Assembly (NCBI GenBank): GCA_900318015.1
Contig: ONJB01000006.1
Coordinates: 9,658-73,657 of the forward strand
DNA length: 64,000 nt
Source: an uncultured Bacteroidales bacterium
GTDB lineage: Bacteria > Bacteroidota > Bacteroidia > Bacteroidales > UBA932
Direction of reading: 5' to 3'
Part shown: positions 43,246 to 64,000 of the stretch, piece by piece
Numbering within the stretch: the stretch's first letter is position 1
Layout of the letters: each line of letters opens with the position of its first letter
Notes under the pieces: generated by a model
Database searches by the model: none
Told to the model about the DNA's origin: nothing
Seen by the model: only the letters and a program-made list of their open reading frames with translations
Made by a program: the position numbers and the translations under genes

Positions 43246-43248
43246 CCT

Positions 43249-44345: not shown

Positions 44346-46346
44346 TTACTCCAGGCCGCGGGCGCGGAGGAGCGCCGCCGGATCGGGATCGGCACCGCGG
44401 AACTGACGGAAGAGGGTCATCGGCTCTTCGGAACCGCCCTTCTCGAGGAAGGTCTGGCGGAAGGCCTTCGCCGTGGCGGGGTTGAAGACGCCGTCGGCCA
44501 CGAACTTCTCCCAGGCGTCCATATCCAGGACTTCGGCCCACAGATAGCTGTAATAGCCGGCGCTGTAGCCGCTGTTGAAGATGTGGTTGAAGTACGTCGT
44601 CCGGTAGCGCGGGATGATCTCGTCGATGAGGCCCATCTCGGCGCAGACCTTCGTCTCGAAGTCGCGGATGGACTGCGCGTCGGTGAACTTCTCCAGCTCC
44701 TCGGCCGTGAGTTCGTGCCACTTCATGTCCAGGATGGACGCGGCGCAGAGCTCGCCCGTGGTGAAGCCCATGTTGAACTTCAGGGAATTCCTGATCTTCT
44801 CCACCAGTTCGGCGGGGATAACCTCGCCGGTCCGGTAGTCATGGGCATAGACGGCGAGGATTTCGGGCACGAACGCCCAGTTCTCGTTGAACTGGGAGAA
44901 CGTTTCCACGAAGTCGCGGGTGACGGCGGTGCCCGAGACGCTCGGATAGCGGCACTTGGTCAGGAAACCGTGCAGGGCGTGGCCGAACTCGTGAAAAGCG
45001 GTCTGGACATTGTCGATGGAAAGCATCGACGGGGCGTCCTCCGTGGCGGGCGGGAAGTTGCACACGTTCACGATGACCGGACGGATATCGACGCCATCCT
45101 TCACGTACTGGTCACGGAAGTTGTTCATCCAGGCGCCGCCCCGCTTGGTGTCGCGGGAGAACCAGTCCTGGTAGAAGATGCCGAGGAGGGACCCGTCGGC
45201 GTCCGTGAGCTTATAGGCCTTCGTCACGTCGTTGTAGACCTCCACCTCGGGCGCGGGCTCGATGTGGATGCCATAGACCTTCTCCGCGGCGGCGAAGACG
45301 CCCTTGGAGACGCTGTCAGCCGTGAAATACGGCTTGGTGACAGACTCGTCCAGGTCGTACTTCTGCACGCGCACCTTTTCGGCATAGTAGAACCAGTCCC
45401 AAGGCTCGATCTTGTGGCCGGCGACGGCCTCCATGTCGGCGAGCTCTTCCTTCGCCTTGCGCATGGACGCGTCCATGATGGGCTTCAGGAAGGCGTCCAC
45501 CGTCTCCGGGTTGCCGGCCATCTTGTCGGCCAGGAGATACTCCGCGGAGGTGTTGTAGCCCAGCAGCTTCGCCTTCTCCGTCCGGAGCTTCATGATCTCC
45601 AGGACGATGGCGTTGTTGTCGTGCTCGTCGCCGTGGTTGCCGCGGCTGGAGTAGGCCTTGAAGGCCTTCTCGCGCAGGGCGCGGTCCTCGCAGGTCGTCA
45701 TAAAGTCCGGGTAGGCGGACACGGTCACGCCGATGGCGTCGCGGAAGGCGTTGTTCTCCGCCAGGAGGTTCTGGCCGAACTTCTGGCTGAGGACGGCGAG
45801 GCGGGTGTTGATCTCCGCGAAGCGGGCCTTGGCCTCCCCTTCCAGACCGACCCCGTTGCGGACGAAGCGGTCATAGAGCTTCTTGGTGACCATCTGCTGC
45901 TCGCGGTCCAGGCCGTCCATGTGCTCGTACACGGCCTTCACCCGGGCGAAGAGGCCCTCGTCCATGTAGATGGCGTTGGAGGCCTCCGTGATGATCGGCG
46001 TGAGTTCCTCCTCGATCTGCTGGATCTCGGGGGTGGAGTCCGACTCGGAGAGGTTGAAGAAAACGCCGGAAGCCTTCGAAAGAAGGTCTCCAGAGAGCTC
46101 GTAGGCCGCGATCGTGTTCTCGAACGTGGGAGCGTCCGGATTCTCGACGATGGCGCGGATTTCGGCCTTCTGGGCCTCGATGCCGGCCAGGATGGCGGGC
46201 TTGTAGTCCGCTACCGTGATCTTGCTGAAGGGCGCCGTTCCGTACGGAGTGTTCCACTCCTCGCTGAAAATCTTTCCGGCCTTCGGGCCGCAGGCGGTCA
46301 TCGTCAATGCCATCGCTGCAAACAACAGGATTCTTTTGTTCATCAT
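44346..46346 (-). CDS. M3 family metallopeptidase (peptidyl-dipeptidase Dcp-like), lipoprotein
   Basis: Lipobox LTMTAC; PWDWFYYAEK, KRGGAWM, FHEFGHALHG (HExxH), DFVE, GYSAGYYSYLWAE and LEKGGS. Confidence 0.92.
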   Translation of the reverse strand: MMNKRILLFAAMALTMTACGPKAGKIFSEEWNTPYGTAPFSKITVADYKPAILAGIEAQKAEIRAIVENPDAPTFENTIAAYELSGDLLSKASGVFFNLSESDSTPEIQQIEEELTPIITEASNAIYMDEGLFARVKAVYEHMDGLDREQQMVTKKLYDRFVRNGVGLEGEAKARFAEINTRLAVLSQKFGQNLLAENNAFRDAIGVTVSAYPDFMTTCEDRALREKAFKAYSSRGNHGDEHDNNAIVLEIMKLRTEKAKLLGYNTSAEYLLADKMAGNPETVDAFLKPIMDASMRKAKEELADMEAVAGHKIEPWDWFYYAEKVRVQKYDLDESVTKPYFTADSVSKGVFAAAEKVYGIHIEPAPEVEVYNDVTKAYKLTDADGSLLGIFYQDWFSRDTKRGGAWMNNFRDQYVKDGVDIRPVIVNVCNFPPATEDAPSMLSIDNVQTAFHEFGHALHGFLTKCRYPSVSGTAVTRDFVETFSQFNENWAFVPEILAVYAHDYRTGEVIPAELVEKIRNSLKFNMGFTTGELCAASILDMKWHELTAEELEKFTDAQSIRDFETKVCAEMGLIDEIIPRYRTTYFNHIFNSGYSAGYYSYLWAEVLDMDAWEKFVADGVFNPATAKAFRQTFLEKGGSEEPMTLFRQFRGADPDPAALLRARGLE

Positions 46347-47434
46347 TTCAGGATCTTAACACTGTTTTCATCGACCAGCGCCAGCTGCACGGCCCCGCTG
46401 TACACGGTGACGATGCCGGTCGCCGAAATCGGAACGCCGTCCTGGGCGTTCAGGTCGCCGATGACGTCCGGGTCGATCTCCGTATCCGCGAACTTGGCGA
46501 AGCCGCTGGTGCGGATCTGGACCGGGAGGCCCTGGGGCAGGTGGAAATAGTGGCTGGTCGTGACGGCGGTCGCATTCGCGCGGATGCTCTCCTTCACCGT
46601 CAGGCCCGTCATCTCGTCGAAGACATCGTCCATTCCCTTGTCGGAGGTGCCGCAACGGTCGAAACAACCGGCGTCCAGATACTCCAGGAACTTGTTCTTG
46701 GACATGGCCCAGGTGGTCACGCCATACGTCTCGGAAGAGCAGAAAACGCGGTTGGTCGAGGACTTCTTGTCCTTGTAGGGATCCACGTACAGGAGGATGA
46801 AGATGCGCTTGAAGTGGTCGGAAGCATAACTGCCGGCCGCACCGTACCGGAGGTCGGTGATGGTCACCAGCTGCCCCCAAAGAGGATTGGTGTAGCCTTC
46901 CTTGAGGGCTTCCTGGAGCTGGGCCTCCGTGACCGAGAGCGGCGGGACCGGATCGCCGAAGGCGCCCCGGATCACATGGGCGTCGATCAGGTAGCGGTTG
47001 TCCAGGTAGGCGGTCTCGTATTCCCCGGTCTGGTCTTCCACGCCCAGCTGGGGCATCCCGTTGTACTGGCCGATCGTGAGACCGCCGCACCGGACATAGA
47101 TCGTCTGGCCCAGTTTGTAGTCACTGTACAGGGAGGACAGGCCGATCTTGACGCTGATGACGCCCGTCTCGTCCTGGATGTACAGTTCGCGGTAGATATT
47201 GCCGGAATGGTCGTCGGAGATGACCTTGCCCTTGATCACCATGTCGTCGTCCTGGATCTTGAGGACGCCGTGCTTGGCATAGAGGGCCTTGAGTTCGGCA
47301 ATCGTGGCGGTAGGCGTCAGTTCGGCCGCCTTATACATGTCCACATCTCCGTTCTTCAGGGTGAACACCGGCTCCCACTCCTCGCAGGAAGCGAGGGCGA
47401 GCGCGGCGGCAAGGATCACTAATGCTCTTTTCAT
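46343..47434 (-). CDS. DUF5689-like OB-fold lipoprotein
   Basis: Lipobox LASC; ATIAELK...IKGKVISDDHSGNIYRELYIQDETG...LYSDYKLGQTIYV pattern. Confidence 0.72.
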   Translation of the reverse strand: MKRALVILAAALALASCEEWEPVFTLKNGDVDMYKAAELTPTATIAELKALYAKHGVLKIQDDDMVIKGKVISDDHSGNIYRELYIQDETGVISVKIGLSSLYSDYKLGQTIYVRCGGLTIGQYNGMPQLGVEDQTGEYETAYLDNRYLIDAHVIRGAFGDPVPPLSVTEAQLQEALKEGYTNPLWGQLVTITDLRYGAAGSYASDHFKRIFILLYVDPYKDKKSSTNRVFCSSETYGVTTWAMSKNKFLEYLDAGCFDRCGTSDKGMDDVFDEMTGLTVKESIRANATAVTTSHYFHLPQGLPVQIRTSGFAKFADTEIDPDVIGDLNAQDGVPISATGIVTVYSGAVQLALVDENSVKILK

Positions 47435-47437
47435 GGC

Positions 47438-50332
47438 CTAGAAACGGAAATAGATGTTCAACATGTAATTGAAACCGCTCATGTAGAAGTACTTCGAGTC
47501 GAAGCGGTAGAACATCTGCTTCGCCACGGTGTTCTTCACGATGCGGGTCTGCTCGTAACCACCGGTCTTCACCCAGGTGTTGTTCAGCAGGTTCTTCGCA
47601 TTCAGCGAGAAGCCCAGCTGGTACTTGCGCTGGATGTACCAGGACTTGCCCACGGAGAGGTTGAGGAGCCAGGAAGGATCGAACTTCTCCTGGGAGCACA
47701 TGTACGAGACCTCGAAGGGGGTCACCTCCTTGTCCGGACCCGCGGTGGCGTAGTCCGTGCGGTAGAGCGGATTCATCGACAGGTAGGAATGACCGAAGTA
47801 GTCGATGTCCGCGTCCACGAACCAGTAGTTCCAGTTCCAGTTCAAGCCCAGGCTGACGGCCAGCTGCGGCGTGGATTCCACATAATGGCGGGCGATCGTA
47901 CCGTCCGGCTCGGGATGGCTCTTCCAGTACGGGACCGTGACGCCGTAGGTGCCTTCCACGATGGAGGCGTTGTTGTCGATGGTCTGGTACATCTTCGGGT
48001 TGGAGGTGTAGTAGTACTCACCGTAACCGATGACACCCTGGAGGGCGAGGTTCGGGATGTCGGTGGGGATCTTCCAACCCATCTCCATGCCCACGTGCCG
48101 CTCGTCGATGCCGGTCAGCGCAAAGTTGGTGAAGGAGTTCTGGCTGTCGTCATAGAAACTCATCACCTTGGCCTGGTCCATGATGTCGGTGTAGTAGCCC
48201 GTGATCCGGAAGTTGTAGCCGTTGGAGGACACCTGGTAGTTGATGTCGCCGGTGAGGGTCTTCACGGTCGTCAGCTCCGGAGCCAGCTGGTTGCGCGTAC
48301 GCGGGGACATGAACGACTGGCTGAAATTGGGCGCGTCGTTGAAGTAGCCCGCATTGGCATAGAACCGGTGACCGCCGGGAAGGACGTAGTTGAGGTTCAC
48401 CTTGCCGGCGTAGGTCAGGAAACGCGCCACCTTGGACTTGCCGTAGGACGTGATGGGCTCGCCGTTCTCGTCATAGGTGGTCACGACCCGGCCGTCGATG
48501 ACCATCGGCTTCCCGTCTTTGTCCAGGCCCGGGAACAGGCCCTTGCGATTGAGACCGTGCCGCCAGAAGGCGGTCTGTCCCACGCGGCCGCCGACGGCCA
48601 TCTCGAAGTTGCCGATGTTCAGCTTGCCGGACAGCCAGCCGTTCCACTTGCGGACGTTCGCATAGTAGTCATACCCGTACTTGTCCCCGACATGGATCTT
48701 CTGCACCCGGCCGTTCGCCAGCCAGTAATCCAGGTCGTTCTGGGTCATGTAGGGGAAGGCGGCGTAGTCGCGCTCGGCGAAGGAGTCCATGTTGTAGAAG
48801 TAATCGCCGCCGAGGAGGTCGTCCATCCGCTGGTAGTACTCGGTCCGGTTCACCTTCGCGTCGGCGCCGCCGGTCAGGGTGAAGGTCCGGACCGGACGCC
48901 ACTTGAAGTTGAACGCGAAGTTCAGGTCCTGCTGGTCCGTGCGGCGTTCCTGCACGGCATACTTGGACCGGCGGGCGCCATCCTCGACGTTCATCTTGTT
49001 CACGGCGTAGAGGCGGTCCCAGTCGATGTGGGCGTACTGCGGCAGGTCCTTCCGCCAGACTTCCTCGGCCCAGGCGGCCTTCATGCCGTTCAGACGGTTG
49101 TAGTCGTCCTCTTCCATGAAGTAGTAGCTCGGGAGGTTCCGGTAATAGTCCGGACGCGGATCCTGGGCGTCATACCAGTCGAGGGCGGTGTAACCGTTCT
49201 TGCCGAAGCGGTACAGGACCGTCGCGGCGGCGTTGAAGGCGTGGCTCGGGGTGAAGTCGTACTTGAGGATGGCGATGGGTTCGTGCGTCTTGCGGACGCG
49301 GGCATTGCGCACCTTGCCGTTCTGGTAACCCCAGTTGGAGTTGTACATGTTGTCGCCTATGAGGTCGTACACCTCCTGGGTGGACGAGTTCGCGGCTCCG
49401 CGTTCGCCGGGCGTGCCCATGATGACGGCGCCAATCTTGTGCGCGTCATTGAACTGCTTCTCGACCGCGGCGTAGTACGCGAAGGAACGGTAGTACACAC
49501 CCTTCACCCAGTCGTTGCCGCCCAGACGGGCCGACACGTTGAACGCATAGGACCAGCCGTCGTCCCGGGGACCGGAGGCGTAGGTCAGCATCAGGCGCAG
49601 CCGGTACAGCTGGCTGTTGGTGAGCACGCTCCCCCGCCATCCCTTGCGGACGGACAGGGCGTTGACGGGAAGGTTCGTCAGGCCGTTGTAGCCGCCGATG
49701 CCGTAGTCGGAGATTTCGGCGCCGTTGACGGTGTACTTAGTGCGGGTGGCTTCGTTGAGGCCGCTCCACAGCGAGAACGGGGAATACCCGGTGATGGCGT
49801 CGTTCATCTTGACGCCGGCCAGGTACACGTCCTGCGACTCGGAGGAGTAGCCGCGCACGCGGTAGCGGACCGCACTGAAGTTGTAGCCCGCCATGTTGTT
49901 GAACACGTCGTTCTGGCCGAACAGGACGGTCGGGCTGTCACCGTAACCGGTGTCGTCCATGTCGAATTCCACGAGGTTGTCCACGTCCACCTCGCTGACG
50001 ACCGCGCCGCGGGTCAGGGAGAGGTTGAACATGTTCTTGACATACCCGTCGTTGACGGTGACGTTGACCCGCGTCTCCAGGTAGTCCGGAGCCTGGATCA
50101 CCAGGTCGTATATGCCGTTGTCCAGGTCTTCGATGAGGAAGCGGCCGTCGTCGCCGGAAGTCACCGTGGCCACTTCGGCCGTACCCTGGTACAGCACGAG
50201 GACCGCACCGGGGACCGGAGCCCGGTCGGTGCGGCTGACGACCGTACCGCGCACGCCGCCCGTGTACGTCTGAGCGGAAAGGCCCAGCGAGAGGAGGAGC
50301 GCGACGGCCGCCAAGGTTAGTTTCTTGATCAT
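47438..50332 (-). CDS. TonB-dependent outer-membrane receptor (non-SusC type) with N-terminal carboxypeptidase-regulatory-like domain
   Basis: Signal peptide GLSA-Q; N-terminal Ig-like domain; amphipathic beta strands; terminal YFRF. Confidence 0.82.
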   Translation of the reverse strand: MIKKLTLAAVALLLSLGLSAQTYTGGVRGTVVSRTDRAPVPGAVLVLYQGTAEVATVTSGDDGRFLIEDLDNGIYDLVIQAPDYLETRVNVTVNDGYVKNMFNLSLTRGAVVSEVDVDNLVEFDMDDTGYGDSPTVLFGQNDVFNNMAGYNFSAVRYRVRGYSSESQDVYLAGVKMNDAITGYSPFSLWSGLNEATRTKYTVNGAEISDYGIGGYNGLTNLPVNALSVRKGWRGSVLTNSQLYRLRLMLTYASGPRDDGWSYAFNVSARLGGNDWVKGVYYRSFAYYAAVEKQFNDAHKIGAVIMGTPGERGAANSSTQEVYDLIGDNMYNSNWGYQNGKVRNARVRKTHEPIAILKYDFTPSHAFNAAATVLYRFGKNGYTALDWYDAQDPRPDYYRNLPSYYFMEEDDYNRLNGMKAAWAEEVWRKDLPQYAHIDWDRLYAVNKMNVEDGARRSKYAVQERRTDQQDLNFAFNFKWRPVRTFTLTGGADAKVNRTEYYQRMDDLLGGDYFYNMDSFAERDYAAFPYMTQNDLDYWLANGRVQKIHVGDKYGYDYYANVRKWNGWLSGKLNIGNFEMAVGGRVGQTAFWRHGLNRKGLFPGLDKDGKPMVIDGRVVTTYDENGEPITSYGKSKVARFLTYAGKVNLNYVLPGGHRFYANAGYFNDAPNFSQSFMSPRTRNQLAPELTTVKTLTGDINYQVSSNGYNFRITGYYTDIMDQAKVMSFYDDSQNSFTNFALTGIDERHVGMEMGWKIPTDIPNLALQGVIGYGEYYYTSNPKMYQTIDNNASIVEGTYGVTVPYWKSHPEPDGTIARHYVESTPQLAVSLGLNWNWNYWFVDADIDYFGHSYLSMNPLYRTDYATAGPDKEVTPFEVSYMCSQEKFDPSWLLNLSVGKSWYIQRKYQLGFSLNAKNLLNNTWVKTGGYEQTRIVKNTVAKQMFYRFDSKYFYMSGFNYMLNIYFRF

Positions 50333-50338
50333 ATCCGG

Positions 50339-51409
50339 TTACTTGTTACTTACTACAATATAGGTCGGGAAGTGGTCGCTGTAGCCGCCCACGAAGGCGC
50401 CGTTCGAGAAGGTGCGCAGCGGCTGGCCGGCATACTGGCCTTCCTGCTGGACCATGAACGACGGGTTGAAGATGCGCGCGTAGTACTTCTTCTTCACAAT
50501 CGGCTGGATCTTCAGGGTGCCCTTCGGGGCGTTCACGAGGGCCTCGTTGACCACGAGGATGTCGTAGATGTTGTTCTCGCCCCGGTAGTACAGGGAGCTG
50601 TATCCTGCCTTGAGCATGGACACGAACGGGGAGAAGAAGTCCATCGGCCCCACCTCCTCGATCTTCTCACGGCCGTGCATCCACACGGCCATGCTGTCGT
50701 CGGTGGGGTTGTCGTTCATGTCGCCCATGGCCACGATCTTGATGCCGGGATACTCCTGCATCAGGCGGACGCTCTCTTCGTACATCATCTGGCCGCCGCG
50801 GGAACGCAGGGCGCCGCTCTTCTCGCCCAGGCGGGAAGGAAGGTGCGCGACCAGGAAGGCGAACATTTCGCCGCCCAGCATGCCGCGGACCATCAGGAGG
50901 TCACGGGTGCGGAAGGCGTCCTGCTCCTCCTTGGTCATCCCGAATTCGAGGGTGCTGTCGAAGTTGAACGGGATGGACTTGGACTCCAGCACGGTGAAGA
51001 GCTCCGGCCGGTACAGCAGGCCCACATCGACGCCGCGGCGGTCCGGACCGTCGTAGTGGACGATCTGGTAGTGCGCGTCGGCGATGGCCGGCTCCGCGAC
51101 GAGGTCCTCCAGCACGTGGCGGTTCTCGATCTCGGAGACGCCGAGGACGGCGTGGTAGGCCTTGTTCTCGTCCCGCATCGCCCGGATGACCCGGGCCATG
51201 TTGGCGAGTTTCTTCTGGTACTTGAATTCAGTCCATTCGTTCGCGCCGTCGGGAAGGTATTCGTAGTCGTTCTTCCCTTCGTCGTGATAGGTGTCGAACA
51301 GGTTCTCCAGGTTGTAGAACCCGATGACATAGTTCTTCTTTCCGCCCGACTGGGCGAAAGCCGGCGAAACCGCCAGCAGGAACGCAAGGATGGTTATGAA
51401 TCTTTTCAT
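50339..51409 (-). CDS. Secreted endonuclease/exonuclease/phosphatase (EEP) family protein
   Basis: FYNLENLFD, VSEIEN, DRRGVDVGLLY, AHLPSR, MGDMND and GGYSDHFP. Confidence 0.9.
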   Translation of the reverse strand: MKRFITILAFLLAVSPAFAQSGGKKNYVIGFYNLENLFDTYHDEGKNDYEYLPDGANEWTEFKYQKKLANMARVIRAMRDENKAYHAVLGVSEIENRHVLEDLVAEPAIADAHYQIVHYDGPDRRGVDVGLLYRPELFTVLESKSIPFNFDSTLEFGMTKEEQDAFRTRDLLMVRGMLGGEMFAFLVAHLPSRLGEKSGALRSRGGQMMYEESVRLMQEYPGIKIVAMGDMNDNPTDDSMAVWMHGREKIEEVGPMDFFSPFVSMLKAGYSSLYYRGENNIYDILVVNEALVNAPKGTLKIQPIVKKKYYARIFNPSFMVQQEGQYAGQPLRTFSNGAFVGGYSDHFPTYIVVSNK

Positions 51410-51421
51410 CGCTCGTTCGTT

Positions 51422-52582
51422 TTAATTCCACCACCAACTGACCGAATTCGGATTCTGCGTCTCCACGGCCGCGGCCGCGGCTTCACCGATGGCGGCGGGC
51501 AGGTTCACGAAGAAATTGACACCGGTCTTCTGTTCCAGGTCGCGGATGGACATCACGGAAGGATGGTTGCGCGAGACGGTCTCACTCGGGTTGTGGGTAT
51601 GTTCCAGATAGACGGCGCAGCCGCTGTAGCCGCCGTTCTCGGACGACGACTTGCTGTAGCGGAGCACTGCCTTGTAGTAAGCGGTCGGGATGGCGATGGA
51701 CTTGCCGTCGATATCCGTCGCATAGCTGACGGGGCCGTCCACCATGCAGCCGGTCACCACGTACAGGGTGTCGCACTTGCCGGCCCATCCACGGACCCGG
51801 TCTTCCAGGCGGGCCCAGATCTCCCCGTTGAAGTTGTAGTTCTGCGGGGTCATGTTGGTGCCGTAGAAGGTCTGGACGTTGGCGTTGTAGCTCAGGCGGT
51901 CGGCCGACGGGATCTGGTGTCCGCGCGCCCAGCCGCCCCGGTAGGCGCTGGTGATGATGGGCTGGCGGGAAGCCGGGATCAGCGGGTCGAGGCCCCAGGC
52001 ATCGGAGCGGGAGCCGCTGCCCCGGAGGGCATTGTTCAGCGGATAGGCCACCCAATGCGAGACCAGCTTGGAGTAATCCCAGTAGAAGGAGTAGTTGCGG
52101 CCCGAATAGTTTCCGACAGTCATGTTGTGCCAGAAGAAGTTCAGGCCGTCATCCGGCCGGGTCTCGGGCAGTTCCATCCAGCCCTTGCGGGTGGAGGAAC
52201 CGCCGTTGATCTCGGGTTCGGGATCTTCCGAGGGGGCACGCTGGTGCAGGGTGACCGTAAGGGTCTTCTCCTGCGCCTGGAGCCGGATGTCGGCCTGGCG
52301 GGCCCCCTCTCCGGTATTGGCATCATAGAGCAGCGCGACGGCCTTGCAGTTTCCCTGACCCTGGTTCGGGGTCACCTGGATCCAGTCCGCGTCGCACGTG
52401 ATGGTCCAGCTTCCCTGGGCATATACCTCCAGGAACTGGCTGCCTTTCCGGCTGGAAACGGCGTCACGGGCGAGCACGAAATCGGGGTCGGGAATGACGG
52501 GTTCCTCTTTGCAGGAGAAAAGCCCCAGCGAGAGGACCCCGAGCAGGACCGCGCCGAAAACGGTATGTAGTCTCGTTCGCAT
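51422..52582 (-). CDS. BACON domain + DNA/RNA non-specific endonuclease (NucA/EndA-type) lipoprotein
   Basis: Lipobox LFSC; BACON-like WTITCDADWIQVTPNQG...NTGEGARQA; RGHQIPSAD, TFYGTNMTPQ, NFNGEIWARLE and IPTAYYKA. Confidence 0.92.
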   Translation of the reverse strand: MRTRLHTVFGAVLLGVLSLGLFSCKEEPVIPDPDFVLARDAVSSRKGSQFLEVYAQGSWTITCDADWIQVTPNQGQGNCKAVALLYDANTGEGARQADIRLQAQEKTLTVTLHQRAPSEDPEPEINGGSSTRKGWMELPETRPDDGLNFFWHNMTVGNYSGRNYSFYWDYSKLVSHWVAYPLNNALRGSGSRSDAWGLDPLIPASRQPIITSAYRGGWARGHQIPSADRLSYNANVQTFYGTNMTPQNYNFNGEIWARLEDRVRGWAGKCDTLYVVTGCMVDGPVSYATDIDGKSIAIPTAYYKAVLRYSKSSSENGGYSGCAVYLEHTHNPSETVSRNHPSVMSIRDLEQKTGVNFFVNLPAAIGEAAAAAVETQNPNSVSWWWN

Positions 52583-52594
52583 AGTCACCCTGCC

Positions 52595-56254: not shown

Positions 56255-56269
56255 ATTGCGAAGCATTGG

Positions 56270-58147
56270 TTATTCGGTTTTACCGTTCAGGGAATAGAGG
56301 TAGGCCTTGCCGGAGACGGTTTCGGGCGTATTGCCCTTGTAGTTCATCAGCTTGCCGTAGATGATGACTTCATCACCCACCTTGATATCGGTCTGGCCAG
56401 CCTCGAACTTCTTGTTGCCGAGGTAGAGGGCGCGGAACACCTGGAACTCGCCGTCTCCCGTCCCGTCGCCGGAAAGGAAGAAAGAGGCATTTCCGTAGCT
56501 GCCGCCCTCGGTATAGGTGCCGCCGGAGGCGATCCGGCAGATCTTGCCCTTCATGTACACCTCGTCCGTGGACTCATACTCCGTGTTGGAGGTCCAGGTC
56601 AGGCCGGCGACGGCCGCGGCCGCCTCCGCCGGGGTATAGGGATTCGCGAGGGAGCCCTTGGCATTGGCCCCGGCAATCTTGACGGCGATGACGTTGACGA
56701 ACTTGCCGCCGCTGGAGAGGCCGTTGAAGTAGCCGGTCACGGTGACGGTCTGGCCGTCGAACGACTTGGCGTCCAGCGCCTCGACCGGATAGACGATGCT
56801 GCCCTGCTTGACGCCGGTGTCCACGCCGTCGAACTCCACGTTGTAGTAGTTGCCGGAGACCTTGAGGGTGCCGGTGAACTGGATGAACTCGGCGACGCTG
56901 GCCGTATAGTCGAGGACGGAGGCCGTGATGTCCTTCACTGTCGGATGGACGACGGACGCGGTGCCGGTCTTCTCGACGGAGGTCAGGGTGGCGAGCTCGG
57001 GCACGCCGTTGTAGGTGGTCTTGGTGGCCATGACCTTCACCTTGTCGCCGACTTCGACGGCATTGGCGCCGCTGTCATAGGCATAGATGGCGGTGGCGCC
57101 GTCGGAGATCACGAAACCCCGGCCGGTCTTCGCCACGACGGTGGATTCGAGGGTCTCCACGCCGGAGTTGTCCGGCAGGGCCACGATCTCGGTCACGCTC
57201 TGGCCGGTCGGCGGGACGCCCGGCTGGCTCACGGACACGCTCTTGGAGGAGTTGGTGGCCTTGAACTGGATGGACGCCGTCCGGGCGGCCGTGGTGGGAT
57301 TGGCCTCGTAGGCGAAGGAATAGACGGCCGCGCCGCCTTCGCCCGCGGCGATGTCGGTCAGCCGGATCCAGCTCTCGGACGGGATGACCGCCATGCCGTC
57401 GGCCTTGGAGACCACGGAGATGGTGAAGGTTCCCGCCTCGGCGCTCTCGAGCGCAATCTCGGCCGGGTCCACGTCGATCAGGGACTTCTCCACCTTGATG
57501 AGGGTGGCGTCCACGAGTTCGAGGGTGCTGCCGTACATGGTGCGCGGTCCCTGGACGGTGATGACATCGCCCGATTCGACGCCGAACGTGTTCCAGCCGC
57601 CGGCATCCTTGGGATACTGCCCCTTCGCGTTGAACAGGCCGTAGATGTAGATGGTGCCGGTCTCGTCCTGGACATACAGGTTGCCGTAGTTCGTATTGGC
57701 GATGGTGGTCACGGTGCCGCGGATCCGGAAGGTCTGGCCGTCGTTGCCGGCCATCACCTCCGCGATCGTGGAGATCGGAGCCTCGTAGGCGCCCGGTCCG
57801 GCCTGGATCACGGTAAAGCGCTGCTTGCGGTCGCCGATGTTCAGCACGAGATTCGCCGTCCGTTCGGAGGAACCGGTGTTCTCGTCGGCCGCGAAGACGA
57901 TGCTGTTGACGGCGGGGCCGCCTTTGTGCGGGGTCACGGTGAGCCAGTCGGGAATGGTGCTTTCGTCGAAGGCCCAGTCGGCCTTGGACGTCACCGTCGT
58001 GCTGGCGACGCCGCCCCGCAGTTCAATGCTCAGGTAGGATTTCTCCACCTGGATGCTGTCCAGCGTGGAAATGACTTGCTCCTGCACGCAGCCGGCGGCG
58101 AGCGCCGCACCGGCGAGGATGGAAAGGAAGAATCTGTAGAGTTTCAT
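56270..58147 (-). CDS. Surface lipoprotein with two BACON-like domains and several OB-fold-like modules
   Basis: Lipobox LAAGC; FRIRGTVTTIANTNYGNLYVQDETG module; the C-terminal module is the same repeat as in the downstream gene. Confidence 0.78.
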   Translation of the reverse strand: MKLYRFFLSILAGAALAAGCVQEQVISTLDSIQVEKSYLSIELRGGVASTTVTSKADWAFDESTIPDWLTVTPHKGGPAVNSIVFAADENTGSSERTANLVLNIGDRKQRFTVIQAGPGAYEAPISTIAEVMAGNDGQTFRIRGTVTTIANTNYGNLYVQDETGTIYIYGLFNAKGQYPKDAGGWNTFGVESGDVITVQGPRTMYGSTLELVDATLIKVEKSLIDVDPAEIALESAEAGTFTISVVSKADGMAVIPSESWIRLTDIAAGEGGAAVYSFAYEANPTTAARTASIQFKATNSSKSVSVSQPGVPPTGQSVTEIVALPDNSGVETLESTVVAKTGRGFVISDGATAIYAYDSGANAVEVGDKVKVMATKTTYNGVPELATLTSVEKTGTASVVHPTVKDITASVLDYTASVAEFIQFTGTLKVSGNYYNVEFDGVDTGVKQGSIVYPVEALDAKSFDGQTVTVTGYFNGLSSGGKFVNVIAVKIAGANAKGSLANPYTPAEAAAAVAGLTWTSNTEYESTDEVYMKGKICRIASGGTYTEGGSYGNASFFLSGDGTGDGEFQVFRALYLGNKKFEAGQTDIKVGDEVIIYGKLMNYKGNTPETVSGKAYLYSLNGKTE

Positions 58148-58167
58148 ATCGTCGCGTGCTTGGGGGG

Positions 58168-61100
58168 TTAGTTGAACATGTACTTGACACCGATCTGCAT
58201 GTACCAGCAGTTGCCGAGGCTGTGCTGGTAGTCCCAGGTCTTCACGCCGGAATCCACCATGGTGGAGAACACGGGAACGCCGTCCGGATCCGTCCGCTCG
58301 TACTTCAGGATCTTGGCGTTGCCGCTGGCGTTGGGCACGTCGGGGTTGAAGCCCTTCGTCACGCCCCAGCGGGAGTTGAACAGGTTGCTGACGTTCTGGA
58401 CGTCCAGGCTCACCTGCAGGGTGTTGCGGACGCTGCCCACCTTCACGATGAAGTCATGGGCGAAGCGGAAGTCGAACACGTGGCGCATCGGCTGGTTCAC
58501 GGCGTAGGCCTCGGCATACTTGCCCGCGTTCGCGGTCAGGTAGGCGTCCTGCGCGGCGAACTCCCAGTAGCGGTTCGCATTGTCCTCGTCGATGAAACGG
58601 ATCTCGTTCTTGTTGGCGGGGATGTACATCAGGTCGTAGGCGTTGCCGTCGCCGTTCAGGTCGTTGCCGTAGACATAGCTGTTGCCCGAATAGCGGAGGC
58701 CTTCGTAGAACAGGCTCCAGTGGTTGTGCCCGGCGTCGGTGTAGGCGATGGAGGCCATCAGACGGTCAGGCAGGTTGTAGGAGGAGTTGTGCAGGATGTT
58801 GTAGTTCGGGCCGTCCACGGAAGGGATGTACTTCCAGGCGGCGGAGGCGTTGGAGCCCGGCATGCCGGTCACTTCCTTGCTCACGGTGTGCGTGTAGGCC
58901 GCCGTGATGCTGAGGTTCTGCAGCGGCTGGGCGTTCAGGGAAACGGTCGCGATGGAGCCCCAGCCCTTGTTGGTGTTGGTCAGCACGTAGGCGTCCTTGT
59001 TGGTGTAGCGGTAGTCGGAAGGATAGATGTGCCGGTTGTCGGGGCCGTTGAAGGTCACCCAGCCCGCATTGTCCTCCGGGATGTTGTAGTTGGTGAGCAT
59101 CACGCCGTTGATGGTCTTGTTGAAGATGTACTCGGCGCTGATGGTCAGCGGGAAGTCAAACGGGAAGGAGTAGTCGACGGCAAGGGAGCTCTTCCACACC
59201 TGCGGCATCTTGAAGTGGTAGTCCACGCCCGCGACTTCGCTCGGGGCGGGGGCCGTCTCCGGGGTGATGCTGGTCGGATACTTGTCCGGGTCGATGCCGT
59301 TCAGGATGTCCAGGATCTGCCAGCGGTCGTCCAGGATCTGCCAGCGGTCGGTCACGAGATGGCCGCCCGGCATCATCCGGCTCAGGACGTTGGGATCCTT
59401 CATCTTGGTCATGCGGCCTTTCACGATACCGGCGTTGGTAGGCATGTTGGTGAAGAACACCAGCGGAATACGGCCGGAGAAGAGGCCGGTACCGCCGCGG
59501 ACCTTCAGGCTCCTGTCCCCGAAGACGTCCCAGGAGAAGCCCAGACGGGGGCTCACCTGGATGCTGGTCTTGGGCCACTTGCCGGTGTCCACGTGCTTGC
59601 CGCCGAAGTCAAGGGCATACGTCGCATTGTTCGTCATGACGTCCTTGTTGTTGAAGGACAGGTTGTCCAGACGGAGACCTGCGGTGAGCTTGAAGCGGTC
59701 GTTCACGGTCCATTCGTCCTGGATATAGGCGCCGATCTGGGCGAAACGGACCTTCGCAGAAGGAGTCTCGTCCCGGTTGAATCCCCAGTCGAAAGCCATC
59801 TCGATCGGGGCGTTGCCCGCCATGAAGTCGCTCATGCTGGCGAACCGGAACATGCCGGTACCGTTACGCATGTACGTATTCAGGGCCATCTGGGCCTCCA
59901 CGTTGGCACCGGCGGTCACCTTGTGGGCGCCCAGGTACATGGTGACGTCGTCCTTGACGTTCAGCACCGTGTTCTGGACCTTGTTCCGGTAGGTGAAGAG
60001 TTCCGTACCGAAATCCATGTAAGGCTCGTTGGCATAGTCGGCACCCAGGTCGCCGGCAAGGATTTCCACGAACGGGAAGAAACCGCCGTCATTGCCGCGG
60101 ACGTCCTGGATGTCGGAGTACGTGACCAGCAGCTGGTTGGAAACCTTGTCCGAGAAGCGGGAGTTCAGGTCCGCGGAGACCGTCCAGAGGTTGTTCATCT
60201 GGTTGTACAGCGAGTTGGAGAAGACGAGGCCGTACTTGGAGACCATGCCGAAGCTCATGTCGGACACGTCGCGGGAGGTGGACGGAGCCGTCCACTTGTT
60301 GTTGTTCGTGTAGTTGTACCGCAGGGCCAGATGGTGCTTCTGGCTGATGTTCCAGTCGATGCGGGCGAGGAGCTTCAGGTTGCCCTGGTCCTTGTTGTAG
60401 TTGTTGTAGGAGCCCGGATCGTAGTCGTAGTTCTTGATGAGGAAATTCCGCATCTGCTCGGCCTCGGAGATCCTGACACGGGTGATCATGCGGGTCTCAT
60501 CCTCGACGCCGTCCTCGGAAGGACGCCACTTGATGATCTCGGAAGGGCTCGGGGAGCGCTCGGCGTTGACGAAGAAGAACAGCTTGTTCTTGATGATCGG
60601 GCCGCCCAGGGTGAAGCCGTACGTGGTCTTGCTTTCCGGGGTACGCTCGAGGTCCACGCCGTCCACGCGGTTGCCGTGCATGTTCTCGTTCTGGTAATAG
60701 ACATAGGCCGTTCCCTTGAACGTGTTCGTGCCGGACTTGGTGATGGCATTGATACCGCCGCCGATGAAGTTCGACTGACGGACGTCGTACGGGGAGACCA
60801 CGACCTGCATTTCCTCGATGGCGTCGATGGAAATCGGGTTGCCGCCGCCCGGCAGGGCCGTCGACAGACCGAAGTTGTTGTTCACGTTCGCGCCGTCCAC
60901 GGTGAAGTTGGTGGAACGGCCGGAGCTGCCGGAGAAGTTCATCCCGTTACCGCCGTAAGGCGAGAGCTTGGCCATGTCGGAGAAACTCCGGCTGATGGTA
61001 GGCATCTCGATCATCTGGCGGGAGGAGATGTTCGTGGAGGCGCCGGTCTTCTCCACCGCCGCGAACTTGGAGGTAGGGGCGGCGATGACGACGGCCTCGG

Positions 61101-61452
61101 AGAGGAACTCGGAGGATTCCGGAAGCTGCGCGTTCAGGTTGAACGTTTCGGCCAGGGAAAGGGTGACGTCGGTGTAGTTCACCTGCTGGTAGCCCAGGCA
61201 GGAAACCTCGACCCGGTAAGGGCCGCCGGTGCGCATACCCTGGATGGTGTACAGACCGTCCACGTTGGTCACGGAGCCGTAGCTGGTGCCGGAGGGCTCG
61301 TGGATGGCCACGACAGCGGCGCCGATGACCGGCTCTCCGTTCTGGTCCACGACCCGGCCGCCGAGGGACGACGTCGTCACCTGCGCGGAGGCAGCGATGC
61401 CAGCGAACATCGTGATGATCGCAAGCAAAAGGCTTTTCAAGGGATTTCTCAT
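58168..61452 (-). CDS. TonB-dependent receptor (Oar-like; carboxypeptidase-regulatory-like N-terminus)
   Basis: Signal peptide AASA-Q; PISIDAIEEMQVVVSPYDVRQSNFIGGGINAITKSGTN plug motif; terminal KYMFN. Confidence 0.9.
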   Translation of the reverse strand: MRNPLKSLLLAIITMFAGIAASAQVTTSSLGGRVVDQNGEPVIGAAVVAIHEPSGTSYGSVTNVDGLYTIQGMRTGGPYRVEVSCLGYQQVNYTDVTLSLAETFNLNAQLPESSEFLSEAVVIAAPTSKFAAVEKTGASTNISSRQMIEMPTISRSFSDMAKLSPYGGNGMNFSGSSGRSTNFTVDGANVNNNFGLSTALPGGGNPISIDAIEEMQVVVSPYDVRQSNFIGGGINAITKSGTNTFKGTAYVYYQNENMHGNRVDGVDLERTPESKTTYGFTLGGPIIKNKLFFFVNAERSPSPSEIIKWRPSEDGVEDETRMITRVRISEAEQMRNFLIKNYDYDPGSYNNYNKDQGNLKLLARIDWNISQKHHLALRYNYTNNNKWTAPSTSRDVSDMSFGMVSKYGLVFSNSLYNQMNNLWTVSADLNSRFSDKVSNQLLVTYSDIQDVRGNDGGFFPFVEILAGDLGADYANEPYMDFGTELFTYRNKVQNTVLNVKDDVTMYLGAHKVTAGANVEAQMALNTYMRNGTGMFRFASMSDFMAGNAPIEMAFDWGFNRDETPSAKVRFAQIGAYIQDEWTVNDRFKLTAGLRLDNLSFNNKDVMTNNATYALDFGGKHVDTGKWPKTSIQVSPRLGFSWDVFGDRSLKVRGGTGLFSGRIPLVFFTNMPTNAGIVKGRMTKMKDPNVLSRMMPGGHLVTDRWQILDDRWQILDILNGIDPDKYPTSITPETAPAPSEVAGVDYHFKMPQVWKSSLAVDYSFPFDFPLTISAEYIFNKTINGVMLTNYNIPEDNAGWVTFNGPDNRHIYPSDYRYTNKDAYVLTNTNKGWGSIATVSLNAQPLQNLSITAAYTHTVSKEVTGMPGSNASAAWKYIPSVDGPNYNILHNSSYNLPDRLMASIAYTDAGHNHWSLFYEGLRYSGNSYVYGNDLNGDGNAYDLMYIPANKNEIRFIDEDNANRYWEFAAQDAYLTANAGKYAEAYAVNQPMRHVFDFRFAHDFIVKVGSVRNTLQVSLDVQNVSNLFNSRWGVTKGFNPDVPNASGNAKILKYERTDPDGVPVFSTMVDSGVKTWDYQHSLGNCWYMQIGVKYMFN
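59309..59350. repeat. Exact 21-bp tandem duplication inside the receptor gene (DRWQILD x2)
   Basis: TCCAGGATCTGCCAGCGGTCG at 59309-59329 and 59330-59350. Confidence 0.95.
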
Positions 61453-61522
61453 AAGGTTATCGTGCTTTAATTATATAGTTTTCCAATTTGCGAATTTAAC
61501 GAAAAAAACGAAAAAGCACAAT

Positions 61523-61554
61523 AAAAAACGGGACCCCTTTTTAAGGGGCCCCGT
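61523..61554 (-). terminator. Intrinsic terminator after the upstream TonB-dependent receptor
   Basis: Minus strand reads ACGGGGCCCCTT-AAA-AAGGGGTCCCGT followed by a T run (12-bp stem with one G-U pair). Confidence 0.85.
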
Positions 61555-61575
61555 CGGGGATGCTGACCTGTCAGA

Positions 61576-64000
61576 CTAGTTGAAGAAGTACTTCAGGCCG
61601 AGCAGGACCTGCCAGCACTCGGCGGTATTCTTGAAGAAGTTCGTGTAGGTCTTGGTCGGATAGTTGCCATCCACCTTGTTGAAGGAGAACTGCGGAACGC
61701 CGCTGCCGTTCAGGCCTTCATACTTGAGCGGGCTGATGGAGTTGGCGCTCGGATAGCTGTCACCGGACTGGCTGTAGGCGAACTGGCGGACACCCCACTT
61801 GCTGTTGATCATGTTGCCGATATTGTCGATGGAGGCGCTGATCTGGAGCTTGTGGTTGGTGGAACCGATGTGGAACTTGATATCCTTCGCCAGGCGGAGG
61901 TCGAAGCGGTGCACGAACGGGGCGCGGGCTGCGTTGGACTCGGCATACTCACCCTTGTGCTTGGACAGATAGTTGTCCTGCTCGACGAACTTCCAGAAAG
62001 CGTCGCGGTCGGCCTCGGTCGTGAAAGCGACCTCGTCCTTGGTGGCAGGAATGTAGATCAGGTCGTAGGAAAGGCCGTCACCATTCATGTCGTTGCTGTA
62101 AGTGAAGCTGTTGCCCGCCGGGGAATAACCCGTATAGTAGAGGTCCACCTGCAGGCCGCCGATGAGGTCGATGTAGTAGGAGAGGTTCGCGGAGACCTTG
62201 TCCGGAGTGACATACTGGCTGCGTTCCAGCACGGCGAAGTTCGGACCGTTCACGGAGTAGAGACCCTGGTAGGCGGAGCTGGCGGCGGAACCCGGCATGC
62301 CGGAGATTTCCTTGGCCTCGGTGTGGGTGTAGGAGAACATCGCCTTGAGGTTGCGGATGGGCTCGGCCTTCACGGTGTAGTTGAAGGTGTAACCCCAACC
62401 CTGACGGGAATTGGTCAGGACATAGGCGTTGTTGGTACCGTACAGATAGTCGCCTTCATACTTCAGGCGGTTGTCCGGACCGGAGAAACGGCTGGTGACC
62501 TTGCTCTCGTTGATGTTCCAGTTCACGAGGCGGGTGCCCCAGATGGTCTTGTTGAACATGCCTTCCGCGGTCATGGAGAACGGGAAGGAGGTCGGGAGCT
62601 GCAGGTCGAGGGCGAGGGAGCTCTTCCAGATCTGCGGCATGTGGAAGTCGGGATCGACGGCGTTGATGTCGGCGCTCTTGCCGATCTGGCCATCCTGAGG
62701 GGTGACGGTGGTGTTCAGACCCAGGGCCTTGATGTACTCCTCGTTATTGGTGATCAGGTGACCACCGGTCTCCTTGCCGCCGTTCAGGGTGATCAGCGCG
62801 GCCTTGACATCGTCCGGATACTTGATTCCGGTGATCTTGCCATCGGCATCCTTGGCGAAGGAAGAGGTGTACTTGGCGGTAGTCTGGATCATACCCGCAT
62901 TCTGAGGCATGTTCGTGAAGAACACGAGAGGGAGACGGCCCTGGAACAGGCCGGTACCGCCGCGGACGACGATGCTCTTGTCACCATAGACATCCCAGTT
63001 GAAGCCCACGCGCGGGGAAATCTGGACGCGGGTCTTGGGCCACACGCCGGTATCGATGCTCTTGCCGCCGAAGCTGATGGCCTTGATGGCGTTGTTGGTC
63101 ATCAGGTCCTTGTTGTCGAAGGCGAGCATGTCGGCACGGAGGCCGTAGGAGAGCTTGAAGTTGCGGGAGAGCTTCCATTCATCCTGCACATAGGCGCCGT
63201 ACTGGTCGTAGTTGATTCGGCCGGCCGGGTTGGAGACACCGTTGTTACCGTAGGTGTAGACGAAGCTCAGGGGCAGGTTACCCTTGAGGAAGTCCTCGGC
63301 GCTGGCGAAGCGGTAGTAACCGGTACCGTTACGCATGTAGGAGTTGTGAGCCATCTGGTGCTCGTAGGTGGCGCCAGCGGTAAGGGTGTGGGAACCCAGG
63401 TAGAAGGTCAGGTTGTCCTGCACGTTGAGAACCGTGTTCTTCACACCGTTGTTGTAGGTGAAGAGCTCGTAACCGAGAGAGGTATACGGGATGAAGTTAC
63501 CGGTGCTGTAGTCGCCGTCGGTCATGATGTCGATGTGCGGGAACGGGCTGGACTTGGAACCGCGCTGGTCGTTGATGTTGGTGTAGGTCGCAATGAAGCG
63601 GTTGGAAACCGTGTTGGAGAAACGGCTGTTGAGCTCGCCGGCGATGGACCAGACATCATTCTGCTGGCTGTACATGTTGTTGGAGAACGGCTGGGACTCC
63701 TTGCTGGCACGGTTGAAACCCTTGTTGCGATAGCTGTCATCGCAGGAGTTGCCGTTCGGAGCATACCAGTAGCCATTCGTCGTGTTGTTGTAGCGGAGGC
63801 TGAGCTTGTGGGCATCGGAGATGTTCCAGTCGATACGGGCCAGGAGCTTGCGGTTCTGCGTACCGCCGGGATAGCTGTCGAGGGAACCCGGATCGTAGCC
63901 GTATTCGTTCTTGAGCTTGTCAGCGATCTGGTTGAGGACACCGGTCTTCGAGGCATCGGCACGGACCTGGATCTTCTCTTCCGGCTTTTTCTGCATTTCG
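61576..64000 (-). CDS. TonB-dependent receptor, paralog of 58168-61452; 5' part outside the window
   Basis: Frame is open at the window edge; shared motifs LLARIDWNIS, ELFTY, QDEW, RGGTGLF.GRxPLVFFTNMP, MPQxWKSSLA and terminal KYFFN. Confidence 0.9.
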   Translation of the reverse strand, partial: EMQKKPEEKIQVRADASKTGVLNQIADKLKNEYGYDPGSLDSYPGGTQNRKLLARIDWNISDAHKLSLRYNNTTNGYWYAPNGNSCDDSYRNKGFNRASKESQPFSNNMYSQQNDVWSIAGELNSRFSNTVSNRFIATYTNINDQRGSKSSPFPHIDIMTDGDYSTGNFIPYTSLGYELFTYNNGVKNTVLNVQDNLTFYLGSHTLTAGATYEHQMAHNSYMRNGTGYYRFASAEDFLKGNLPLSFVYTYGNNGVSNPAGRINYDQYGAYVQDEWKLSRNFKLSYGLRADMLAFDNKDLMTNNAIKAISFGGKSIDTGVWPKTRVQISPRVGFNWDVYGDKSIVVRGGTGLFQGRLPLVFFTNMPQNAGMIQTTAKYTSSFAKDADGKITGIKYPDDVKAALITLNGGKETGGHLITNNEEYIKALGLNTTVTPQDGQIGKSADINAVDPDFHMPQIWKSSLALDLQLPTSFPFSMTAEGMFNKTIWGTRLVNWNINESKVTSRFSGPDNRLKYEGDYLYGTNNAYVLTNSRQGWGYTFNYTVKAEPIRNLKAMFSYTHTEAKEISGMPGSAASSAYQGLYSVNGPNFAVLERSQYVTPDKVSANLSYYIDLIGGLQVDLYYTGYSPAGNSFTYSNDMNGDGLSYDLIYIPATKDEVAFTTEADRDAFWKFVEQDNYLSKHKGEYAESNAARAPFVHRFDLRLAKDIKFHIGSTNHKLQISASIDNIGNMINSKWGVRQFAYSQSGDSYPSANSISPLKYEGLNGSGVPQFSFNKVDGNYPTKTYTNFFKNTAECWQVLLGLKYFFN

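Follow-up and report, generated by a model that had tools for sequence, protein, structure and literature searches.

A ddb-type locus with Oar-type transporters and OB-fold lipoproteins, predicted to serve extracellular nucleic-acid use in an uncultured gut Bacteroidales bacterium

Introduction

What does a gut bacterium take up through a gene cluster that places TonB-dependent transporters next to nucleases and OB-fold surface lipoproteins, and do all genes of such a cluster serve the same substrate? These questions are raised by eight tightly packed, co-oriented genes on the minus strand of a 64,000-nucleotide (nt) stretch of DNA (C47:9658-73657 of genome G000; hereafter the window, whose coordinates are used throughout). 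The host is an uncultured Bacteroidales bacterium that we place as Candidatus Cryptobacteroides-like and as an inhabitant of the animal gut (rumen or hindgut). In order, the genes encode the TonB-dependent transporters (TBDRs) TBDR1 and TBDR2, two OB-fold lipoproteins of 625 and 1223 amino acids (aa), a BACON-NucA nuclease, a nuclease of the endonuclease/exonuclease/phosphatase (EEP) family, a third transporter (TBDR3) and a DUF5689 lipoprotein.

Only one route by which Bacteroidales dismantle and import extracellular DNA has experimental support so far, the ddb system, whose non-nuclease components are little understood. In Bacteroides thetaiotaomicron, ddbABCDEF encodes three nucleases, the transporter DdbC, the DUF5689 protein DdbD and DdbE, a further protein with a signal peptidase II (SPII) signal (Sharan 2025, PMC12478041). 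Deletion of ddbABCDEF abolishes both the depletion of exogenous DNA and the production of uracil and xanthine from DNA, and DdbA, DdbB and DdbF degrade DNA in vitro (PMC12478041). The same study presented an AlphaFold3-predicted DdbC-DdbD complex, noted that DdbD resembles a DNA-binding HIN domain, related DdbC and DdbD to Riemerella RA0C_RS04915/04920 and called ddb similar to a polysaccharide-utilization locus (PUL-like) (PMC12478041). In strain VPI-5482, BT3560 is a TonB-dependent receptor and BT3562/3563 are lipoprotein nucleases, BT3561 being a hypothetical protein, and homologues of BT3558-3564 travel together (Béchon 2022, PMC8851478).

Here we report that the locus is very probably of the ddb type, serving the use of extracellular DNA and probably of nucleic acids generally. 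Its core quartet of NucA, EEP, TBDR3 and DUF5689 protein appears to be a further member of the published system, and the upstream module of Oar-type transporters and an OB array is likely to be new and specific to its clade.

A ddb-type core quartet

Both nucleases of the core retain their catalytic motifs. The NucA protein carries RGH (H224), NMTPQ (N245) and WARLE, and RGH is kept in 70/70 orthologues; the EEP protein carries YNLEN, GDMND and SDH, and the corresponding motifs NxEN, GDxN and SDH are all kept in 76/76 orthologues. The published ddb locus pairs an SPII surface nuclease with a periplasmic nuclease bearing a signal peptidase I (SPI) signal, and by domains, signals and motifs the same pair is found here. 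Signal types and lipoboxes were judged by eye from the translations. Lipoboxes were recognized in the DUF5689 protein (LASC/EEWE), NucA (LFSC/KEE), the 1223-aa protein (LVGC/RPEE) and the 625-aa protein (AAGC/VQEQ), and SPI-type A-x-A/Q sites in EEP and in TBDR1, TBDR2 and TBDR3. Export signals are thus present on all eight proteins; the initial annotation of this DNA had claimed them wherever the N-terminus was visible. The DUF5689 protein, NucA and both OB proteins are probably surface-exposed lipoproteins, judging from the acidic residues that follow their lipoboxes. For NucA, EEP, transporter and DUF5689 protein, the resulting SPII/SPI/SPI/SPII pattern is that described for DdbA, DdbB, DdbC and DdbD (PMC12478041).

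TBDR3 required structural comparison for its assignment. Pfam recognizes a CarboxypepD_reg domain at its N-terminus only, and a TBDR3/DdbC profile searched against the sequences of the PDB found no transporter, with matches only through this same domain. An AlphaFold2 model based on 65 homologues (predicted local distance difference test score, pLDDT, 85.9) was compared with solved structures by Foldseek, and it matched Fiu, PqqU, YncD, BtuB, FhuA, FecA and OprC over more than 800 columns, with E values of 4e-25 to 1e-19 and target template-modeling (TM) scores of 0.6-0.7. The matches to Fiu, BtuB and FhuA span plug and barrel. Because of this fold match to solved transporters, the model assigns TBDR3 a TonB-dependent transporter fold. 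Residues 109-141 are of low confidence in the model, and the TonB box was not rigorously identified. A CarboxypepD_reg N-terminus together with a transporter fold is the DdbC-type anchor of a ddb locus. With TBDR3 settled by AlphaFold2 and Foldseek and the remaining genes by open reading frames (ORFs) and Pfam, the eight co-oriented genes listed in the initial annotation are all borne out.

The last gene of the quartet had been described as DUF5689-like. The family was right and the wording too cautious: the protein is a true DUF5689 member, scoring 137 bits against a Pfam cut-off of 28.6. It adjoins the transporter downstream, separated by a 3-nt gap and equipped with a lipobox, as in the ddb locus. 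By analogy with DdbD, it is the predicted DNA-binding lid of TBDR3 (PMC12478041).

The locus therefore shares with ddb of B. thetaiotaomicron an SPII nuclease, an SPI nuclease, a CarboxypepD_reg transporter and a DUF5689 lipoprotein, arranged and oriented alike, as well as the absence of SusD and the presence of accessory SPII lipoproteins. A likeness to BT3558-BT3563 had been suggested initially; this is the ddb locus (PMC12478041, PMC8851478), and families, order and signals agree with it. The bind-cut-import logic proposed at the same time is likewise the model already published for ddbABCDEF (PMC12478041). The two loci differ in several respects. The one studied here lacks a ddbF-like second NucA gene after ddbD, has, upstream, one or two additional transporters of the Oar type and lipoproteins in which as many as seven OB modules are arrayed, includes an M3 peptidase gene that is predicted to be co-transcribed, and belongs to an uncultured rumen or hindgut lineage. 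Membership in the ddb subtypes Bt1, Bt2, Pv1 and Pv2 requires more than 50% identity and more than 75% coverage to a reference DdbC such as WP_008762511.1 (PMC12478041). Since TBDR3 is 43% identical to its best named Bacteroides homologue, used here as a proxy, the locus probably lies outside these four subtypes.

Conserved synteny of the core

A DdbC alignment was searched against species-representative genomes, which yielded 80 loci whose gene content was determined by tblastn. Most of them come from rumen, hindgut or fecal metagenome-assembled genomes (MAGs) labelled Bacteroidales or Candidatus Cryptobacteroides, and the nearest, from a goat-reticulum MAG, shows 88% identity. NucA and EEP lie directly upstream of the transporter in 73/73 loci whose upstream flank covers 2.6 kb or more, and DUF5689 lies directly downstream in 50/50 loci with full flanks. 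The synteny survey that the initial annotation had put forward as a check thus came out in favor of a linked quartet.

Syntenic loci extend to Alistipes and Rikenellaceae (42-46% DdbC identity) and to Bacteroides reticulotermitis (L111; 43%). The Pfam content of the B. reticulotermitis locus is a BACON+DUF5689 lipoprotein, Endonuclease_NS, Exo_endo_phos_3, a CarboxypepD_reg barrel, DUF5689 and a second BACON-Endonuclease_NS protein. The same first five genes make up an abundant human-gut Bacteroides-like locus (L112; a cluster of 1447 member sequences). Accessory lipoproteins in the Bacteroides and Alistipes loci have BACON and DUF5689 domains, and loci with a divergent EEP are 29-35% identical. 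Bacteroidales-type DdbC genes that are 69% and 54% identical also occur in records titled Methanomethylophilaceae archaeon (L057) and Gastranaerophilales bacterium (L067), respectively; these contigs are most likely mis-binned.

OB-fold lipoproteins upstream of the core

The 1223-aa lipoprotein consists mainly of OB folds. Across the whole protein, Pfam reports BACON (25.1 bits against a cut-off of 25) and the tRNA_anti-codon OB family (PF01336; E 4e-25). We mapped six units of one type (type A), each of about 125-130 aa, to residues 144-265, 286-413, 427-551, 674-802, 810-939 and 949-1076; their identity to the reference unit (residues 810-939) is 56-88%. A single divergent unit (type B) lies at about 556-670, and together these account for the seven OB folds counted in the initial annotation. 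The C-terminal domain (residues 1081-1223, 143 residues) has no match in the Pfam library used, which lacks the newer families PF27401 and PF25940. For close homologues of the protein, precomputed annotations list PF27401, PF25940 and SSB (PF00436), of which PF27401 and PF25940 may cover the OB unit or the C-terminal domain.

The 625-aa lipoprotein is built, in order, from BACON, a type-B (DUF5689-like) OB, a second BACON, a region weakly resembling the N-terminal part of ExeM/NucH, and a type-A unit; its middle has no Pfam match. Within the type-B OB, residues 125-166 weakly resemble the N-terminal OB of DUF5689 (GNLYVQDETG versus RELYIQDETG, E 0.007). The NCBIfam model ExeM_NucH matches both this lipoprotein and EEP weakly. 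ExeM/NucH-family secreted nucleases of other phyla share with the locus the joining of extracellular tRNA_anti-codon-type OB folds to nuclease function. They differ in that OB and catalytic domains are here on separate polypeptides and the OB folds stand in lipid-anchored arrays. Bacillus YhcR, another OB-fold-bearing secreted nuclease, offers a comparable combination.

The number of units appears to be in flux. At the DNA level, the array ends in three units that make up a 417-bp tandem repeat (53012-54202) of 2.9 copies with 81% nucleotide identity, and relatives have 1 to 6 OB units per locus versus 7 here. Since unit number varies in this way among loci, the array seems to grow and shrink fast. 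The copy number of the 417-bp repeat could be mis-assembled in a short-read MAG.

By sequence, the type-A unit gave only chance-level matches when searched against the PDB. Its AlphaFold2 model (56 sequences, pLDDT 92.6) found its best PDB matches in the N-terminal anticodon-binding OB of LysRS (E 7e-5, TM 0.55-0.58), which agrees with the tRNA_anti-codon match in Pfam. Aromatic residues make up 12-14% of the units; one may speculate that they would lend themselves to stacking against single strands. Among 1.84 billion representative proteins, clustered at 50% identity, the type-A unit had 3457 matches at E<=1e-3 and 558 at E<=1e-30, many in proteins with 2-7 units. Partner domains in 44 long members of the family were BACON (27) and OB families. 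Within the genome itself, tblastn found the type-A unit nowhere outside the locus. Fold, family and neighborhood together suggest that the OB arrays could bind nucleic acid, and the 625-aa lipoprotein is a candidate surface partner of TBDR2.

Additional Oar-type transporters

TBDR1 and TBDR2 belong to a class characterized by CarboxypepD_reg and OMP_b-brl_4, not to the DdbC class. TBDR2 matches CarboxypepD_reg, OMP_b-brl_4 (178.7 bits), TonB_dep_Rec_b-barrel and, weakly, Plug. The TBDR1 gene runs past the end of the window: in full it encodes about 1103 aa, starts 887 nt further on at C47:74544, is preceded by metK, and includes an SPI signal and a CarboxypepD_reg-type N-terminus. The two are paralogues with 49% identity (tblastn). 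A third paralogue, 34% identical, is located at C60:100090-103395 (L115) beside a DUF4906-like lipoprotein, in a region devoid of nuclease and OB genes.

How closely this upstream module is tied to the core was assessed in 37 close loci for which 10 kb of upstream sequence was available and in 13 more distant loci. BACON/OB lipoproteins stand directly upstream of NucA in 35/37 close loci. A co-oriented TBDR2-like gene precedes the ddb core in at least 19 of the 37, always with a BACON lipoprotein gene immediately after it, and one relative (L091) has a tandem transporter pair as seen here. An Oar-type transporter with its BACON/OB module can also lie on the opposite strand beside the ddb core, either divergent (L066:55-2208) or convergent (L072:18280-22717). 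This persistent neighborhood supports a functional link between the upstream module and the ddb core, without naming the cargo of TBDR2. A role for TBDR1 and TBDR2 in the import of nucleic acid is what we infer from this setting.

Proposed function and alternatives

For the locus itself, the evidence consists of gene content and order, conserved synteny, predicted folds and catalytic motifs that are intact; that the nucleases are active and that DNA is depleted is expected by analogy with the published homologous system, and the substrate range is likewise inferred. On this basis we propose that the lipid-anchored, DdbA-like BACON-NucA protein would cut extracellular DNA or RNA at the cell surface. 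The DdbD-like DUF5689 lipoprotein would cap TBDR3 and pass fragments to it for energized import into the periplasm, where the SPI-exported, DdbB-like EEP could degrade them further. Nucleotidases and a nucleoside symporter encoded elsewhere might finish the uptake. A 5'-nucleotidase and a nucleoside:H+ symporter are indeed encoded in the genome, unlinked to the locus, and offer a plausible downstream route. The genome also contains lone paralogues outside transporter clusters, one of NucA (28% identical) and one of EEP (28% identical), at C86:34102-34770 and 42471-43520. A second nucleic-acid locus was not found in the genome; only these lone paralogues on C86 and the TBDR2 paralogue on C60 came to light.

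The upstream BACON/OB lipoproteins most likely act like SusE/F, holding polymer at the surface; together with TBDR2 and its tandem paralogue TBDR1, they may provide a second channel for import. It is conceivable, and we advance this only tentatively, that the locus operates two cooperating nucleic-acid gates: the DdbC/DdbD pair, and an undescribed Oar-type TBDR2 (duplicated as TBDR1) with BACON/OB-array partners. The type-A OB would then represent a large uncharacterized family of lipid-anchored polymer catchers, with at least 3457 clusters, 2-7 units and fast tandem copy-number change. If so, the two gates might split single- and double-stranded substrates, RNA and DNA, or long and short fragments. 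A part for the additional receptors and the OB array in capturing and importing nucleic acid is suggested only by the conserved neighborhood and the predicted fold.

The proposed logic of surface binders, a surface endo-enzyme, a TonB importer with a lipoprotein lid and a periplasmic enzyme is that of SusC/SusD loci (susABCDEFG), which share BACON domains with it as well. The locus differs from them in lacking SusD and a SusC-type barrel, in having nucleases instead of glycoside hydrolases and in its DUF5689 lid. No SusD, glycoside hydrolase or Com family was matched among the eight proteins in Pfam and NCBIfam, as had been noted initially. The adjacent SusC/SusD pair that marks a polysaccharide-utilization locus is absent, and the locus is PUL-like in logic only.

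Several observations weigh against assigning the whole cluster to nucleic acids. The DUF5689 protein is acidic (pI 4.7), as are the OB units, whose pI of 4.5-4.9 and net charge of -3 to -7 per unit are unusual in proteins that bind DNA non-specifically. The structural match of the OB unit is of moderate quality, and oligosaccharides are ligands of OB folds too. No nuclease domain is fused to the type-A OB in the 44 long family members, whose most frequent partner domain is BACON. No TBDR2-like gene could be found in 18/37 close loci, and it occurs in 0/13 distant ones; the core can for this reason do without it. A strong terminator follows TBDR1. Finally, DNA is a poor sole source of carbon, nitrogen or phosphorus for B. 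thetaiotaomicron (PMC12478041), which leaves the physiological pay-off uncertain.

Much of this would be expected if two systems lay side by side, with only NucA-EEP-TBDR3-DUF5689 acting on nucleic acid and TBDR1/TBDR2 plus the BACON/OB lipoproteins importing another ligand, such as an oligosaccharide or a peptide. The acidity of the OB units, the lack of nuclease fusions and the patchy distribution of TBDR2 all fit such an arrangement, as do the placement of the module on the opposite strand in L066 and L072 and the unrelated context of the third TBDR2 paralogue. This is the strongest rival, and it concerns the upstream half only. We nevertheless regard it as rather unlikely. Only 6 nt and no terminator separate the OB-array gene from NucA, OB/BACON lipoproteins adjoin NucA in nearly all close loci, and the type-A unit is confined to this locus within the genome. 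Moreover, the Pfam matches are to nucleic-acid-binding OB families, the type-B OB resembles that of DUF5689, and the upstream part contains no glycoside hydrolase or peptidase.

Two further alternatives accept nucleic acid as the substrate and question its fate. The locus could represent the outer-membrane DNA-uptake stage of natural transformation and not a catabolic system, a parallel being Riemerella anatipestifer, which cannot be transformed without its DdbC/DdbD homologues RA0C_RS04915/04920 (PMC8459023). The homology of DdbC/DdbD to the Riemerella genes is published (PMC12478041, PMC8459023), and the Riemerella pair shares with the locus a CarboxypepD_reg barrel, a DUF5689 protein and a neighboring ddbB-like nuclease. 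ComEC and DprA homologues are also encoded elsewhere in the genome; however, most control genomes, including those of B. thetaiotaomicron and E. coli, have both families too, so that finding them says nothing either way. In Riemerella, the pair functions in transformation, and its DUF5689 protein has choice-of-anchor J and DUF5017 domains in addition; the pair comes without a surface NucA, OB arrays or Oar-type transporters. The architecture studied here is instead that of catabolic Bt-like loci, with NucA upstream, and a surface endonuclease and a periplasmic nuclease with intact sites would shred incoming DNA. Catabolism fits better, and transformation as the role of the locus is improbable. 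We consider it similarly improbable that the main role lies in remodelling extracellular DNA in a biofilm or matrix, with import secondary. Bile-dependent biofilm formation requires BT3563, and biofilm is reduced in BT3560-3563 mutants (PMC8851478); yet such a role leaves the conserved transporter, lid lipoprotein and periplasmic nuclease unexplained, and there is no second C-terminal NucA gene here, unlike in the B. reticulotermitis locus, where one follows ddbD. Biofilm remodelling and import may also coexist.

Use of extracellular DNA, and probably of nucleic acids generally, therefore remains the favored function. An abundant rumen and hindgut lineage would then have extended the ddb core with a second transporter class and with multiplied OB modules drawn from a family that counts thousands of unnamed proteins. 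Should the OB arrays bind nucleic acid and TBDR2 import it, the SusE/F-equivalent binders of DNA-utilization loci would be identified, and a handle would be gained on the differences in substrate range among ddb subtypes that were left open in PMC12478041. If they do not act on nucleic acid, the locus would be one more member of the published system.

Gene organization and transcription

The features of the locus are collected in Table 1. Between 44.3 and 64 kb, long ORFs occur on both strands because the G+C content is about 62%; Pfam matches fall on the minus-strand set only.

Table 1. Genes and other features of the ddb-type locus, in window coordinates
Feature	Position	Strand	Basis
TBDR1, Oar-type TonB-dependent transporter	61576..64000, runs past window end	-	Pfam OMP_b-brl_4 + TonB_dep_Rec_b-barrel
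Intrinsic-terminator-like hairpin, 13 pairs + T-run, between TBDR1 and TBDR2	61527..61555	-	
TBDR2, Oar-type TonB-dependent transporter, SPI signal	58168..61452	-	Pfam
625-aa surface lipoprotein, BACON/OB	56270..58147	-	Pfam, NCBIfam, unit mapping
1223-aa surface lipoprotein, BACON + 7 OB units	52595..56266	-	Pfam, unit mapping, AlphaFold2
DdbA-like BACON + Endonuclease_NS (NucA) lipoprotein nuclease	51422..52588	-	Pfam E 3e-35, motifs
DdbB-like predicted periplasmic (SPI) EEP nuclease, Exo_endo_phos_3	50339..51409	-	Pfam 290 bits, motifs
TBDR3, DdbC-like TonB-dependent transporter	47438..50332	-	Pfam CarboxypepD_reg, AlphaFold2, Foldseek
DdbD-like DUF5689 surface lipoprotein	46343..47434	-	Pfam DUF5689 137 bits
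M3-family peptidase lipoprotein	44346..46346	-	Peptidase_M3 E 1e-126

From TBDR2 to the M3 peptidase, no gap exceeds 20 nt. Gaps measure 20 nt between TBDR2 and the 625-aa gene, 6 nt between the 1223-aa gene and NucA and 3 nt between TBDR3 and DUF5689, and the start of the M3 peptidase gene overlaps the DUF5689 stop; gaps of 3-20 nt leave no space for additional genes. A hairpin scan of the minus strand found strong terminator-like structures only after TBDR1 (61555-61527) and after the M3 peptidase (44318-44289), with none from TBDR2 to the cluster end. TBDR1 is preceded by a TAcCTTTG box of the Bacteroidota -7 type. No TAnnTTTG box was found between TBDR1 and TBDR2, and such boxes occur at chance frequency across the window. 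A sigma-70 promoter scan of the window was uninformative, the sigma-70 model being unsuited to Bacteroidota.

Because of the 13-pair terminator and its own TAcCTTTG box, TBDR1 probably forms a separate transcript. The likely transcripts are TBDR1 alone and TBDR2 through the M3 peptidase, possibly by partial read-through. The cluster had initially been given as 46343 to 64000. Its gene content stands, but its limits do not: TBDR1 probably falls outside the main transcript, and at the other end the cluster continues into the M3 peptidase gene, which is probably co-transcribed. This gene trails the ddb core in nearly all Cryptobacteroides-like loci and not in those of Alistipes or Bacteroides. 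The M3 peptidase has no evident role in nucleic-acid use and appears to be a neighbor conserved within this genus only.

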